Shown one piece after another: positions 34,797 to 46,293 of a stretch of 64,000 nt of DNA (the stretch's first letter is position 1; each line of letters starts with the position of its first letter). The position numbers and the translations under genes are program-made. The notes beneath the pieces are model-generated. The model did not search any database. It was not told the origin of the DNA and was given only the letters and a program-made list of their open reading frames with translations. The stretch is from sequence record OR836606.1. One strand, written 5' to 3'. The stretch is from Staphylococcus phage LY01.

Positions 34797-35201
34797 TTAA
34801 TCTAATAGATTCATTATTCTTTTTGATTTCTGATCTGGAGAAGAATTGTTATTCTGTAATAAAGGATTACTAGGGAGATTACCATCAATAATTCCACTAA
34901 TACGTTTCATGGATGCAATATCTTTTCTTCTAGCTTGTCTTTCTTTTTCAATTTCTTCTGCATTATCTCCATCTGCAGATACCATTGAACCGTATTTAAC
35001 TTTAACAAATTTCTTAATGTCTTTCTCATAGTAATAAGCATATAAACAAAATAGATAACTCATAAGTAAATCGTCATGTCCGCCATCAGGGTGATCAATT
35101 CTACCTTTTTTCATTTGAAGGGATTTTATTTGTTGGAATAATGGTTTATTATTAACTAAATAAGGTTTTTCTTCAACAATCATTGATAAAATTTCATTGA
35201 G
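34797..35201 (-). CDS. terL: terminase large subunit, exon 6 of 6 (LNEILSMIVEEKPY...HPDGGHDDLLMSYLFCLYA...)
   Basis: Contains the terminal catalytic HDD motif followed by a hydrophobic helix, typical of the C-terminal end of the terminase nuclease domain. Reading frame is open upstream of the annotated ATG. The ATG at 35204-35202 is predicted to be the intron's last 3 nt. Confidence 0.7.
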   Translation of the reverse strand, partial: LNEILSMIVEEKPYLVNNKPLFQQIKSLQMKKGRIDHPDGGHDDLLMSYLFCLYAYYYEKDIKKFVKVKYGSMVSADGDNAEEIEKERQARRKDIASMKRISGIIDGNLPSNPLLQNNNSSPDQKSKRIMNLLD

Positions 35202-35389
35202 CATTAGATCTGCTATATAAATTCATGAGTTTAATTTAATTAAAATGAATTTATTCGACTTCGTCATCACTCTGACTTACTTTGCACTTTAAGTTTTTTC
35301 GTTATAAACTACTTCAACAGAAAGCTTTAATCAAAGCAGAGGTTAAAGCTCTTAAGTCATCGCATTTGGACATTTAGAGGAATAAGACC
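35202..35389 (-). ncRNA. predicted TnpB right-end / omega-RNA scaffold region (3' end of IStron)
   Basis: Non-coding, locally GC-richer, stem-rich segment immediately 3' of tnpB, as expected for the IS605-family RE and omega RNA. The guide would correspond to the first ~16-20 nt of terminase exon 6. Confidence 0.4.
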
Positions 35390-36559
35390 TCATTTAGCCT
35401 GCCCAACAAAACGCTTACCATACAGTTTTAAATTGACAGCAGCGTTATAATCTCTATCCATTTTATGTCCACAATCACAGGAATACCATCTATCTGATAG
35501 TTTCAACTTATCTTCTTTAGTTAGAATTTGGCCACAATTAGAACATAATTGAGTTGATGGAAACCATCTGTCAGCTACAATAATAGTATTACCATTGCTT
35601 TCAGCTTTTTGTTCAAGTAAAGTCCTAAACTGTCTCCAATTGGACTGTGCGATTGATTTGGATAGTTTTCTATTTTTAATCATATTTGAAACCTGTAAAT
35701 CTTCAATAGTTATATATTGATAATTGTTAATCAAGTTAGTAGTAATCTTATGAAGATAATCTTTTTTAATATTATTAATTCTATACCATACTTTTTGTAT
35801 TTTGGTTTTCAATACATTGTATTTATTAGAACCATAAACTTTTTTAGATAATCTTTTTTGGTAGTATTTGATTTTATTATAGAGTGAGATTAGTTTATTA
35901 TTTAATGAATGGTATTTTTTAAATTTACCGAAATCATCATTAATAATAGCTAAATCTTTTACACCTAAATCAATACCTACATGACTATTGTTATGAATTA
36001 ATTTTTTACTGTTATCAACTTTCATTACTATCGAAGCGAAATACCTACCAGCATATTTGGATATAGTTACTTCTTGTATAGAATTATAATCTTTGTTTAA
36101 AGGTTCTTTCATTTTAATTAATGAATTTACACCACGCAATTTAAGTTTATTATTTTTCTCACCTTTAATTTGAATAGCGTAAGGATCTTTCCTATAGAAC
36201 CTTGCTCTTAATTTAGATTTCTTTTTAGATTTAAATTTAGGATATTTACCATATCCTTTCCACATCATATTAAATGCTTTACCTAGATCTTCTGTAGAAG
36301 TTTCAATTATCATGATAATTTGATCTTTCTCCCAATCTTCTTTACATTTTTTAAGTTCATCACGAACTCTACGATGAGTTGGTTTTGGTAAAGATTTATC
36401 AATTTGATAATTATTCCACATATATTTCCATTTATTAAGTGCCTTGTTATAAATATAACGACTATATCCAAAAGCTTGATTAAATATCTCTCGTTGTTCT
36501 TTATTAGGTTTCAATTCGATTTTTATAGATTTGTACATGTGATTTTCACCTCGATTCAT
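35390..36559 (-). CDS. tnpB: TnpB (IS605/IS1341-family OrfB RNA-guided nuclease, 389 aa)
   Basis: N-terminal YKSIKIELKPNKEQ...FNQAFGYSRYIYN HTH-like start. RuvC-I GIDLGVKDLA, RuvC-II ITIEDL, zinc ribbon CSNCG...CDCGH, RuvC-III DRDYNAAVNL. Intact frame. Confidence 0.85.
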   Translation of the reverse strand: MNRGENHMYKSIKIELKPNKEQREIFNQAFGYSRYIYNKALNKWKYMWNNYQIDKSLPKPTHRRVRDELKKCKEDWEKDQIIMIIETSTEDLGKAFNMMWKGYGKYPKFKSKKKSKLRARFYRKDPYAIQIKGEKNNKLKLRGVNSLIKMKEPLNKDYNSIQEVTISKYAGRYFASIVMKVDNSKKLIHNNSHVGIDLGVKDLAIINDDFGKFKKYHSLNNKLISLYNKIKYYQKRLSKKVYGSNKYNVLKTKIQKVWYRINNIKKDYLHKITTNLINNYQYITIEDLQVSNMIKNRKLSKSIAQSNWRQFRTLLEQKAESNGNTIIVADRWFPSTQLCSNCGQILTKEDKLKLSDRWYSCDCGHKMDRDYNAAVNLKLYGKRFVGQAK

Positions 36560-36599
36560 ATTTCTAAATGATTTAGAATTTATAATTCATTGTTTAATA

Positions 36600-37140
36600 T
36601 ATCGAGGTAAAAATTATTTTAATTAAATTAAACTCACGAATTCCAGAAATCCCTTTCAGGTTCTGTTAAATAGCAAGACTATATCATGATCCATTAAATC
36701 AATGGACCCCTCGCACTTCGAAAAACTTCTGATGAAGTTAATCTACTCTACTCACTTCACATAGTATTTCAACTATGCTTATTCAGGTTAATCAAACCTG
36801 TGCTTTCGATAGTCGTTGAACGTTTATCCATCATGTGGACACTTCGCTGCTAGACTTCCCATTGTTTACAAACTTTAGCGATCTAGGGTTTTCACCTAGA
36901 CTTGTTTTCAGCATAGTTCATCTTAGAGATTTTTTCTGTCTTTCGACTGCATGTCACGCTATCCATTACTGGCATACGTTGTAGCTCTCTAAGCTTTAGG
37001 GTTTTACAAGCAATTCACGAGGTATTTTTACCACTAATTTCATGAATTAAAATTAGTTTAATTTACTTATATAGTAGCAGAGCGTGAAACATGAATTAAT
37101 AAGAATTTAAGTCTTAATTCACTTAAAATATCTTAAATTA
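36600..37140 (-). ncRNA. full-size group I ribozyme core of the IStron (5' part)
   Basis: P/Q/R/S elements in canonical order on the minus strand. Long peripheral insertions. P9-like hairpin CAGAA.../...UUCUG before the tnpB start. Begins immediately after the terminase exon 5 sense codon, so the in-frame UAA is the first 3 intron nt. Confidence 0.65.
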
Positions 37141-37977
37141 AAACTGTTTCGTTACTCTAGATTTTTTAGTTGTATCAATACCATATCTTCTTACTTGTTT
37201 GGTAACTTTATTAGTGCTATTTCTAGGAATTTCATTAAATACTTGCTTATTAACTTCAACTTGTTTTTCTGCTACTCTATTCTTTAATGAGTAGAAAATA
37301 TTGTCTCCAATACCATCAGTTTGAATCATATCTTCTATCATTACAGTACCTGCATAGTTACGTTCAGGTATTAATACTGCATTAGGTATATAAAGCGTAA
37401 TAAGTTCTTTAATTAATTTTCTAAAAGTAGGTCCATTAATTACATTATTTTGGAAAATCATTACAGGCTCTAATGTACCTGGATCAACTACAGTAAATGC
37501 AGTATTATCTCGACCAAGACCACCAGATATATCAATACCAACAAGCCAGTTCTTTTCATGCATATTATCCATCTTTTTAACCATATAAACATAATAAGTT
37601 TTACCATTTATTTTAAAATCAATAGTATTATATATCTCTTTATTTGCATATAATGATAATTCTGACATTTGTTGTTCATCAAATAAAGAATCATCGTTAC
37701 TAAACGCCCATTCAAGAAGTATCTCACGTTTAACTGCTTCTAAAGAACCAATTTGACGTTTTTGCTTTTCTAACCAAGCATCATCTTTACCTAATTCTTT
37801 ATATGAATATTCTATATAGATGAATGAATTGCCTGAATTACTTTCCATATACTCTTCTAATTTTTCATTACCCTCTTCTTCAGAATTAATGTAATAATCA
37901 TATATTTTTTCTGTCCATTGTGCTGCATCATTCATTTGCTCAAAGAAGAACTGTCCTTGAGGTACATCCAAAGTACT
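37141..37977 (-). CDS. terL: terminase large subunit, exon 5 of 6 (nuclease domain: STLDVPQGQ...WLVGIDISGGLGRDNTAF...)
   Basis: RNase H-like terminase nuclease motifs (first catalytic Asp in GIDISGG). The annotated ATG at 37980-37978 is predicted to be the intron 4 3' end. The stop at 37138-37140 is the IStron's first 3 nt. Confidence 0.75.
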
Positions 37978-45283: not shown

Positions 45284-45506
45284 ATGTCTAAAGATATAAA
45301 AGCTTATCTTATTAATGAATCTAACACAACTTCTCAACCAGAAGTAGTTCAAGATAATAATAAATCGGTTAGATTCATTGCTGAGTTACAAGAAGCTGAT
45401 AGACAAAACCGTAATGGTCGTGTTTATCGTAAAGATGTTATTCAAAGTGGTTTAGATAGTCCAGTAATACAAGAAAAATTAGCAAGAAAAACTTTTTATG
45501 GTGAGT
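45284..45506 (+). CDS. head-region hypothetical protein, exon 1 of 4
   Basis: Ends ...KTFYGE. Exon end GUGAGU(U) pairs with intron IGS GGCUCAC (terminal U.G). Confidence 0.6.
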
Positions 45507-45660
45507 TTTAGGTTAAATGGCTCACATTAAATTATATTAATTGCTGGAAAAGATTATTATCTTAATCAGCATCAACTTAATACAAGTTGTTCAACGACTA
45601 AATATATAGCCTAGATGATATAGTCTAACCTTTATTAAAATGATAAAGAATAATAATTTG
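45507..45660 (+). ncRNA. miniature group I intron 1 (~154 nt, boundaries +/-3 nt)
   Basis: IGS GGCUCAC, P AAUUGCUGGAAAAG, P5 GAUUA/UAAUC, Q AAUCAGCAUC, P6 AACUU/AAGUU, R GUUCAACGACUAAAUA, S GAUAUAGUCU, P9 CUUUAU/AUAAAG, tail AAUAAUAAUUUG. Confidence 0.7.
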
Positions 45661-45920
45661 CAGGACATCCTTTAAGTGATGAACCTAAACGACAAATGTA
45701 TATTGATCAACGTAATATTTCTCATATCGTTACTAGAACATGGTGGAATGGTAATAAATTAATGGCAGAAGTAGAAACGGCACAAACAGCAGCTGGTAAA
45801 GATATGAAAGGTTTAATCGGACAAAAGTCTGACGTATCTTTCTCAATGCGTGGTTTCAGTAAAATTAATAGAACACCTTCTGGCGAAGTTGAAGTTACTA
45901 AACCTTTAAGATTAATCTGT
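45661..45920 (+). CDS. head-region hypothetical protein, exon 2 of 4 (..SGHPLSDEPKRQMYIDQ...PLRLIC)
   Basis: Frame open from 45657 upstream of the annotated ATG. Ends at the complete codon TGT. P1 of the next intron is CUGUU/AGCAG. Confidence 0.6.
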
Positions 45921-46101
45921 TAAATTGTAGCAGCTTTATATAGAAATATATATTGAAAAAGAATATTAATTGCTAAGAAGTTTAATTAAGCCAATTAGCA
46001 TCAACTTAATACAAGTTGTTCAACGACTAAATATATTTACTCTTAATAAGAGTATGATATAGTCTAATCTTAATAGTAAGATCTATTAAGTTAATATAAT
46101 G
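45921..46101 (+). ncRNA. miniature group I intron 2 (~181 nt)
   Basis: P AAUUGCUAAGAAG with compensatory Q AAUUAGCAUC (P4 covariation relative to the other copies). R GUUCAACGACUAAAUA, S GAUAUAGUCU, P9 CUUAAUAG/CUAUUAAG, tail UUAAUAUAAUG. Confidence 0.65.
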
Positions 46102-46121
46102 TACGATAAAATAAACCTTGT
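46102..46121 (+). CDS. head-region hypothetical protein, micro-exon 3 of 4 (~20 nt; only frame YDKINLV is open)
   Basis: Segment between omega-G of intron 2 (46101) and the predicted 5' splice site of intron 3 (UUGU|, IGS GCAA 10 nt downstream). Alternative lengths of 18 or 24 nt are possible. Confidence 0.4.
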
Positions 46122-46293
46122 CGCTTCTTAAAGCAATTTAAGAATGATAAAACTATTAATTGCTAAAATCTTTTATTAAAGTAATTAGCATCAACTTAAT
46201 AAAAGTTGTTCAAAGACTAAATATAGTTTATCCTTTTATAGGATAATGATATAGTCTGATCTATATTATACTAATATAGATAACATAAATGTG
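46122..46293 (+). ncRNA. miniature group I intron 3 (~172 nt, boundaries uncertain by a few nt)
   Basis: P AAUUGCUAAAAUC, Q AAUUAGCAUC, R GUUCAAAGACUAAAUA, S GAUAUAGUCU, P9 CUAUAUUA/UAAUAUAG, tail AUAACAUAAAUG(UG). Confidence 0.6.

Follow-up and report, generated by a model that had tools for sequence, protein, structure and literature searches.

The terminase large subunit gene (terL) of Staphylococcus phage LY01 lies on the minus strand of the 64,000-nucleotide (nt) stretch analyzed here (sequence record OR836606.1; hereafter the window, numbered from its first letter), where it is split by an intervening sequence of ∼1.94 kb that contains a tnpB gene. A preliminary description, made from the letters of the window, had read this insert as an IStron (i.e., a group I intron combined with a TnpB insertion sequence) within terL, with the exon encoding the HDD motif of the terminase downstream of it, and this central reading was supported by every test that we ran. 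LY01 belongs to the PBS1/S6-like Staphylococcus jumbo phages, and the 4.7 kb surrounding the insert are 85–92% identical to the terL region of phages S6, MarsHill, PALS_2, UFV_DC4, SA1, and Madawaska.

Results

The terL gene of phage S6 is uninterrupted, with 2,034 nt encoding 677 amino acids (aa). Spliced alignment of the LY01 sequence to this gene yielded six exons that add up to exactly 2,034 nt, with no stop codon, and a spliced TerL collinear with the 677-aa S6 protein. Exon boundaries were shifted by 1–2 bases such that the small introns follow U and end in G and the IStron ends at a conserved terminal G, after which the last intervening sequence measures 1,945 nt, from T37154 to G35210 (Table 1). 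Exon 5 ends at G37155 (...AAA TCT AGA G), and coding resumes at A35209 (AT CTA ATG CTC...). The insert is absent from S6, MarsHill, PALS_2, SA1, Machias, and AH12, and six IStron-free relatives read K-K-S-R-D-L-M-L-N at the site. Together with the spliced alignment, this empty site identifies the segment as an intervening sequence rather than a spacer, as had been proposed. The limits first put forward, 35202–37140, lie 8 and 14 nt from those given by the S6 comparison (37154..35210), and the exon junction first put forward, ...TKQF joined to the frame upstream of the ATG at 35204, must be replaced by the one read in relatives, ...TTKKSR/DLMLNEI... (here and below, a slash within a sequence marks the junction). 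VTKQF followed by a stop is the exon 5 frame continuing into the intron, and IYIA, the residues upstream of ATG 35204, are likewise intron sequence; the terminases of relatives, rather than ending at KQF, continue DLMLNEI.... Splice sites placed after U at the 5′ end and at G at the 3′ end were tried and rejected, as they either broke the frame or added five residues (VIYIA) found in no relative.

The HDD motif had been assigned to the last exon, and there it aligns with the metal-binding HDD of the YHDDLVMS motif in T4 gp17; Walker B and the first nuclease motif are encoded in exons before exon 6. Comparison of gp17 with the spliced TerL gave three weak collinear matches: LDEWAF with IDECAF (Walker B), GIDISGG with TLDCSEG (nuclease), and HDD. 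The Pfam Terminase_6N match to TerL was sub-threshold, and the homologues in relatives are annotated as terminase large subunits.

Table 1. Positions of terL exons, IStron features, and further terL introns in the window.
Feature	Position	Strand	Basis or remark
terL exon 5 (nuclease domain, N-terminal part)	37155..37977	−	spliced alignment to S6 terL
terL exon 6	34797..35209	−	starts ATCTAATGCTC..., encodes DLMLNEI...GGHDDLLMSYLF...
whole IStron	35210..37154	−	1,945 nt; UAACG... to ...UAUAGCAG; absent from relatives
internal guide sequence GCUCUG	37078..37083	−	P1 with exon UAGAG and intron U37154
P1 extension	37144-37151 / 37084-37093	−	follows internal loop after U·G pair
ribozyme core	36644..37059	−	RF00028 full-length alignment and covariation
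P2	37031-37059	−	core model
P3	37017-37021 / 36709-36713	−	core model
P4 (P with Q element)	37003-37015 / 36842-36855	−	motif search
P5/P5a-c extension	36900-37000 (GAAA hairpin 36936-36950)	−	core model
P6/P6a	36825-36847	−	core model
P7 (R with S element)	36807-36821 / 36673-36687	−	motif search
P7.1	36784-36800	−	conserved hairpin
P7.2	36759-36778	−	conserved hairpin
P7.3	36724-36739	−	conserved hairpin
P8	36688-36708	−	core model
P9	36644-36665	−	core model
5′ arm of AU-rich inverted-repeat stem	36616..36642 (36610-36642 as 33-nt repeat)	−	just after P9
anti-Shine-Dalgarno segment	36600..36609	−	pairs with tnpB ribosome-binding site 36546-36555; inverted repeat I18
tnpB	35390..36559	−	intact, 389 aa from first ATG; 382 aa from ATG 36538
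right end, candidate omega-RNA scaffold	35210..35389	−	180 nt; conserved, structured
long-range helix UGACUU / AAGUCG	35351-35356 / 35256-35261	−	compensatory changes
3′ arm of AU-rich inverted-repeat stem	35220-35252	−	10 nt before element end
terminal hairpin	35220-35246	−	overlaps 3′ inverted repeat; RNAalifold
tail UAUAUAGCAG	terminal G35210	−	right end; omega G, 3′ splice site by model
terL mini introns	38737-38611, 38596-38441, 38370-38211, 38138-37978	−	follow U, end G, P/Q/R/S motifs

The 5′ part of the insert contains the core of a group I ribozyme, with the P, Q, R, and S elements at the positions in Table 1, as had been seen from the letters. Related ribozymes were collected by a motif scan of IMG/VR, which led to stand-alone phage introns (L008–L013), and from contigs coding for TnpB homologues (L004, L014, L015, L023, and L025); covariation was evaluated on a nine-sequence MAFFT alignment, with the structure written to include the P3/P7 pseudoknot. 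Over 53 pairs in 12 helices, 95.2% of cells were paired and 30 of the 53 pairs showed compensatory changes. None of 500 shuffles scored as high, and sliding the 3′ partners by 1–3 columns left 30–43% paired. Four of five pairs in P3 covary, and P5b, P5c (with a GAAA tetraloop), P6a, P7.1, P7.2, P7.3, P8, and P9 form at the same positions from differing sequences, the hairpins P7.1, P7.2, and P7.3 being kept in place in seven sequences. P7.1 and P7.2 assign the intron to subgroup IA2, like all described IStrons.

The stand-alone phage introns (L008:824-1990, L009 on the reverse strand, L010, L011, and L012/L013) have the unusual P5 extension of the IStron (...GCAGUCGAAAGACAGAAAAAA...). They carry no TnpB and have open reading frames (ORFs) for zinc-ribbon or PD-(D/E)xK-like proteins in P6 or after P9, which suggests that one mobility gene has taken the place of another on a common ribozyme scaffold. 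In Klebsiella phage Miami (L005:4996-6388, corresponding to 235487-236879), 100 nt are 77.7% identical to the P5 region of the IStron; this stretch lies in an unannotated 1.4-kb gap after coding sequence (CDS) 282, ∼3 kb upstream of a TnpB gene of Miami's own, and the gap may represent a group I intron, so far unannotated, in a jumbo phage of Gram-negative bacteria. The pattern AATTGCTTGTAAANNCCTAAAGCT had no match in IMG/VR.

At its ends, the element reads ...CTAGAG/UAACG... and ...UAGCAG/AUCUA..., and the terminus ...CAG, including the terminal G35210, is conserved in eight related copies. G is the last base of the 5′ exon and U37154 the first of the intron, and the U·G pair lies one base inside the intron; the minimum free energy fold of the 5′ 167 nt (37000–37166; z = −4.5) forms P1, then an internal loop and a long extension. 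The same arrangement, namely a G-ending exon, a U·G pair displaced by one base into the intron, and a loop behind it, is described for group B (IS607-type) IStrons (PMC4227781) and was verified in vivo for BcISt1 (PMC4227781). A G-ending 5′ exon has been shown experimentally for BcISt1 and CboIStron only. Group B elements end in CGG; CsISt1, however, sits after AG and ends in CAG (PMC4227781). The IStron of Clostridium phage c-st starts AGAGG/TAACTAACAG and the LY01 element CTAGAG/TAACGAAACAG, TAAC being common to both. The dinucleotide AG is found at both junctions of the LY01 element and is analogous to the GG core of CboIStron, whose serine recombinase uses a GG crossover dinucleotide (10.1101/2023.11.20.567912).

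The exon itself differs between alleles. The Arg codon at the junction is AGA in the IStron allele (tctAGAg/a) and CGT in 6 of 6 IStron-free relatives (tctCGTg/a; L001, L002, L003, L029, L030, and L031, compared at window positions 37155–37158), and this synonymous CGT-to-AGA change provides two of the six P1 pairs as well as the AG dinucleotide. The AGA codon could result from selection for splicing or from co-conversion with a donor allele; in both cases the exon matches the ribozyme.

Behind P9 and near the 3′ end lie the two 33-nt arms of an AU-rich inverted-repeat (IR) stem, which are 91% complementary (duplex −33.4 kcal/mol) and loop out tnpB. The 5′IR/3′IR pairing recurs with differing sequence in six other copies (7/7 in all). 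A stem of 15–34 bp with >80% AU, in competition with local 3′ pairing, is a criterion of group B (PMC4227781). The structured right end of the preliminary description was also borne out: it comprises 180 nt (35210–35389), and RNAalifold predicted a conserved fold for eight right ends with 30 pairs, 15 of them with compensatory changes. No RNA family matched the right end in Rfam, either at gathering score on the whole window or in a relaxed scan of 5 kb. Because the terminal hairpin uses bases of the 3′ IR arm, the RNA can fold either for splicing or locally, and such antagonism between intron and omega RNA has been demonstrated for CboIStron (10.1101/2023.11.20.567912). By analogy with published systems (PMC10690162; 10.1101/2023.11.20.567912), we infer that the right end acts as the guide (omega) RNA of TnpB.

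The tnpB gene is intact. Its second ATG (36538) is the more likely start, because a Shine-Dalgarno (SD) sequence, GAGGTG, precedes it and the resulting 382 aa equal the NCBI annotation. As had been claimed for the 389-aa frame, the product has both RuvC and zinc-ribbon residues: D197/E286/D370 and C339/C342/C361/C363, respectively, are invariant in 12 aligned homologues. It contains the Pfam domains HTH_OrfB_IS605, OrfB_IS605, and Cas12f1-like_TNB, matches NCBIfam NF040570 with 236 bits (cut-off 100), and matches the solved TnpBs 8iaz, 8h1j, and 8exa over its full length. It is 100% identical to the “mobile element protein” on a 258,897-bp contig of Staphylococcus phage LY01, for which a second TnpB, 81% identical, is recorded (P0002). 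A 14-nt hairpin, 93% complementary (36600–36614 with 36542–36555, minus strand), sequesters the tnpB SD sequence GAGGUG, and comparable anti-SD pairings made of other sequences were seen by eye in four of the contigs with TnpB homologues (L014, L025, L015, and L023), which suggests translational control of TnpB.

The order ribozyme, 5′ IR, tnpB, and CAG-ending right end recurs at at least seven other loci, with TnpBs 41–76% identical, and none of the copies examined has a tnpA gene. Insertion sites are terL, the 5′ region of groL, an RNA-polymerase β′-like gene, the neighbourhood of nrdD (the L014 copy adjoins nrdD fragments), and intergenic sequence; in Listeria phage LPJP1 (L004), the copy lies 13 nt upstream of the groL ATG, outside the coding region. 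The LPJP1 TnpB (L004:892-2455) is annotated as two overlapping CDS (892–1521 and 1487–2455), has a stop in the zinc-ribbon region of the alignment, and probably represents a decaying copy. Of the relatives whose right end is known, the closest (L026:1328-1965; TnpB 76% identical) is located in the RNA-polymerase β′-like gene (...SGSRGSFGNNFKLTAIIRG...). Its 3′ flank, which encodes the β′-like protein, starts with ATCTAA, the same hexamer as exon 6; this could be a coincidence (about 1 in 4,096) or point to a preferred target.

The unit also recurs, with TnpBs ∼60% identical, in many ∼240-kb phage contigs from ENA metagenomes. More than 100 90%-identity clusters of 402-aa TnpBs (P0008–P0120) come from contigs of ∼235–255 kb, and for some pairs of clusters the same length of the longest contig is listed (e.g., 236,629, 239,504, or 245,548 bp), which suggests several IStron copies per ∼240-kb contig. 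The clusters seem to stem from a clade of uncultivated jumbo phages that the IStron lineage has heavily colonized. A single-protein scan of IMG/VR gave no TnpB relatives, and a profile scan gave only distant TnpBs (26–34% identical). The exact right-end motif had no match in IMG/VR and no copy among bacterial genomes (one per species), where two chance matches without TnpB were found; the bacterial scan is weak evidence that the lineage is phage-borne.

The LY01 terL contains four further mini group I introns of 127, 156, 160, and 161 nt, which cluster around the Walker B motif and leave an exon 2 of only 14 nt (38610–38597). The Rfam group I model RF00028 gave sub-threshold scores on these introns of 47.8, 42.1, and 26.5 bits. 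By eye, the 127-nt intron appears to have P1 and P3–P8 and no P2 or P9, which would be an unusually compact core for a complete group I intron. Subsets of the mini introns vary among relatives, with none in S6 terL and some in MarsHill and PALS_2. Elsewhere in the window, nrdE has a 162-nt mini intron (30592–30431, minus strand; QLG/QRNGAGA) that is absent from S6, PALS_2, and MarsHill, and the prohead protease/scaffold region has three on the plus strand, at approximately 45500–45671, 45924–46102, and 46103–46291.

Discussion

Our analysis shows an insert of ribozyme, IR stem, intact tnpB, and conserved right end whose removal restores the terL frame exactly and whose anatomy recurs in other phage genes. 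We consider it likely that a TnpB-only group B IStron has inserted into the nuclease-domain coding region of terL and self-splices. Judged by its sequence, the element is a TnpB-only group B (IS607-like) IStron closest to CsISt1, because it combines a G-ending target, a UAAC start, a CAG end, and a long AU-rich IR stem. Membership in group A (IS200/IS605-type) was rejected, since the T-rich target, TCAG end, and short balanced IR of that group are all absent: the sequence before the insertion point is ...TCTAGAG, the element closes with GCAG, and its IR is a long, AU-rich one. For the element, the IS605 label of the preliminary description is to be replaced by IS607-like.

From these features we infer the following course of splicing, guide-RNA function, DNA cleavage, and movement. 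The entire 1,945-nt element would be transcribed within the terL mRNA, and its 5′ 510 nt would fold into an IA2-type group I ribozyme, while a 27–33 bp AU-rich stem between the segment after P9 and the right end would loop out tnpB and bring G35210 to the core. Self-splicing after G37155 would join AGA G/AT CTA, giving a 677-aa TerL and a predicted mRNA junction (37155/35209) of AAATCTAGAG/ATCTAATGCTC. Unspliced RNA could double as tnpB mRNA. Its 3′ 180 nt, together with ∼16–20 nt of exon 6, would form the omega RNA, which would take the local terminal hairpin and so exclude the splicing stem; the first ∼16–20 nt of exon 6 would be the guide/target (candidate target ATCTAATGCTCAATGAAATT). TnpB with its guide would then cleave terL alleles that lack the IStron and so promote copying of the element to those sites, and insertion elsewhere would require a serine-recombinase TnpA acting in trans at the AG dinucleotide of both junctions. 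The HDD exon lies downstream of the insert, and a phage that did not splice would have no functional terminase; as terL is essential and this TnpB is found in a named phage, LY01, the terminase must be made if that phage was isolated and propagated.

Several observations weigh against this interpretation. A 5′ exon that ends in G rather than U is unusual for group I introns, and no convincing candidate for P10 was found. The Rfam model RF00028 (Intron_gpI), proposed in the preliminary description as a check, had no match in the whole window at gathering score, and a relaxed 5-kb scan (E≤10) returned only noise; a full-length alignment (26.1 bits, where the threshold is 50; E = 1.4e-4) emerges only when an isolated stretch of 616 nt is searched alone. 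The low score is due to extensive insertions, one within P5 and others between P7 and P3′; for the homologous element in Listeria phage LPJP1 the model gives 24.7 bits, and for the published c-st IStron 61.9 bits. TnpB family models do not separate IS605-type from IS607-type proteins, and the TnpB of the c-st IStron ranks alike. There is no tnpA in the element, with only ∼40 nt between the 5′ IR and tnpB, and none of 17 ORFs of 140–270 aa in the window, which is a quarter of the phage genome, has a Resolvase domain, so that competence for transposition is unproven; members with ORF B only, such as CsISt1, have nevertheless been accepted as IStrons (PMC4227781). Finally, IStron-free relatives differ at the presumed target-adjacent motif (CGTG rather than AGAG) and by 1–5 bases in the first 20 nt of the presumed target, which makes present-day homing into these relatives uncertain.

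According to another explanation, the insert could be an ordinary phage group I intron in which tnpB replaced a homing-endonuclease gene, spreading solely by TnpB/guide-RNA cleavage of intron-less alleles in co-infections and not by TnpA, with the IS607-like ends as remnants. We regard this as possible but rather doubtful. It accords with the lack of tnpA in all examined copies of the lineage and of a Resolvase ORF in the window, with the putative endonuclease ORFs, in P6 or after P9, of the close stand-alone ribozyme relatives, and with the failure to find the exact right-end motif together with TnpB in representative bacterial genomes. Moreover, a 2026 review put forward intron homing as a way for TnpA-less IStrons to spread (PMC13565253). 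However, copies in unrelated genes, in intergenic sequence, and in a 5′ untranslated region need transposition or some other ectopic insertion, the matching AG at both junctions fits a serine-recombinase crossover, and the search for tnpA covered a quarter of the phage genome.

Two further explanations appear very improbable. In one, no splicing occurs and TerL is made as two polypeptides (residues 1–542 plus VTKQF, and M545–677 from ATG 35204) that together make up an active nuclease. Genes split in this way occur in phages, there is an ATG two codons past the junction, and the ORF 34797–35204 is open, but no Shine-Dalgarno-like sequence precedes this ATG (...aatttatatagcagatctaATG), the two pieces would divide the RNase H-like nuclease fold at a point between its catalytic motifs, and a split gene needs neither the covarying core, the IR stem, and P1 nor an exon codon matched to the guide sequence. 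In the other, equally hard to credit, a plain TnpB insertion sequence fell recently and by chance into the P9 loop of an existing terL intron, for which the four other group I introns of this gene offer landing sites, but no relative has an intron without tnpB at this position, the ribozyme-tnpB-right-end unit recurs at at least seven other loci with 41–76% TnpB identity, and the 3′ splice site coincides with the right end of the insertion sequence, with a compensating 5′IR/3′IR stem in other copies.

More tentatively, the TnpB-only, AG-core IStrons may constitute a phage-adapted lineage, abundant in S6/PBS1-like and ∼240-kb uncultivated jumbo phages, in which TnpB and its guide RNA would have replaced the protein homing endonuclease of an IA2 intron and which would spread by cutting intron-less essential genes during co-infection. 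If this were true, RNA-guided cutting in co-infection would perhaps also exclude competing phages, the ribozyme would keep the element harmless to its carrier, and the CGT-to-AGA change at the junction and the target mismatches of relatives would be traces of conflict between phages. To our knowledge, intron homing by TnpB has not been demonstrated in phages, and the tnpA-less lineage, with LY01 set against S6 or MarsHill, offers a tractable system for the study of TnpB as an RNA-guided intron homing endonuclease.

If the IStron is spliced, an essential virion-assembly gene is expressed only when a transposon-ribozyme chimera leaves its mRNA, and terL here should be annotated as one gene with six exons and not as fragments plus a “mobile element protein.” The preliminary description, for which an IStron in an essential phage packaging gene would be novel, claimed too much, as group I introns are common in jumbo-phage terL genes (PMC12880540) and IStrons, known since 2000 and divided into two groups in 2014, include CbISt3 and CbISt4 of the Clostridium botulinum phages c-st and D-1873 (PMC4227781). 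For an IS607-type IStron, work of 2023–24 reconstituted transposition, splicing, cleavage by TnpB, and the way in which these regulate one another (10.1101/2023.11.20.567912). Full-text literature searches turned up neither an IStron described from a terminase gene or a Staphylococcus phage nor anything on LY01. What is new is the host group (jumbo phages of Staphylococcus and Listeria together with a large clade of uncultivated ones), terL as an IStron target, and the AG-core, tnpA-less sublineage; the range of IStrons, so far the chromosomes of Clostridia, Bacilli, and Fusobacteria and two phages of C. botulinum, comes to include the jumbo phages of Staphylococcus and Listeria and many phage genomes of ∼240 kb from metagenomes.

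Among known systems, CdISt1 and the other group A elements share with the LY01 element the combination of a group I IA2 intron and TnpB spliced as one unit, but their target is a T-rich pentanucleotide with U as its last base (TTGAT/ATTAT/TTTAT, the slashes here separating alternatives), their end is TCAG, and they possess subterminal palindromes and a short GC-balanced IR, none of which the LY01 element shows. The endonuclease introns L008 and L009 from IMG/VR belong to the same ribozyme lineage (73–80% identity over P3–P7) and, like Twort-type IA2 introns, occupy conserved essential phage genes as the LY01 element does; introns of the L008/L009 type differ in having a protein-only endonuclease ORF, no guide-RNA right end, and a 5′ exon that ends in U. 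BcISt1 of the Bacillus cereus group splices after G and has its U·G pair displaced by one base, an internal loop behind it, and an AU-rich IR stem, as appears to be the case here, but it is chromosomal, has a GG target, and retains tnpA remnants. CbISt3, CbISt4, and CboIStron are likewise group B elements with TAAC after a G-ending site, an AU-rich IR, and TnpB downstream of the ribozyme, and the first two are phage-borne like the LY01 element. They are unlike it in their GG core (TGGG/AGAGG target, CGG end) as opposed to AG/CAG, in having a tnpA, present or truncated, and in a TnpB only 34% identical. The c-st copy (CbISt4) lies beside a hypothetical-protein gene, not in terL, and its ribozyme passes the Rfam threshold with 61.9 bits, as compared to 26.1 bits here; for CboIStron, splicing, cleavage by TnpB and omega RNA, and competition between the RNA folds have been shown. 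The nearest counterpart is CsISt1 of Clostridium sporogenes (PMC4227781), a deviant group B member that, as here, has an AG site, a CAG end, ORF B only, an IA2 intron at its 5′ end, and IS607-like ends; CsISt1, which we liken to the LY01 element by its description and not its sequence, resides in a bacterial chromosome and measures 2,369 nt rather than 1,945 nt.

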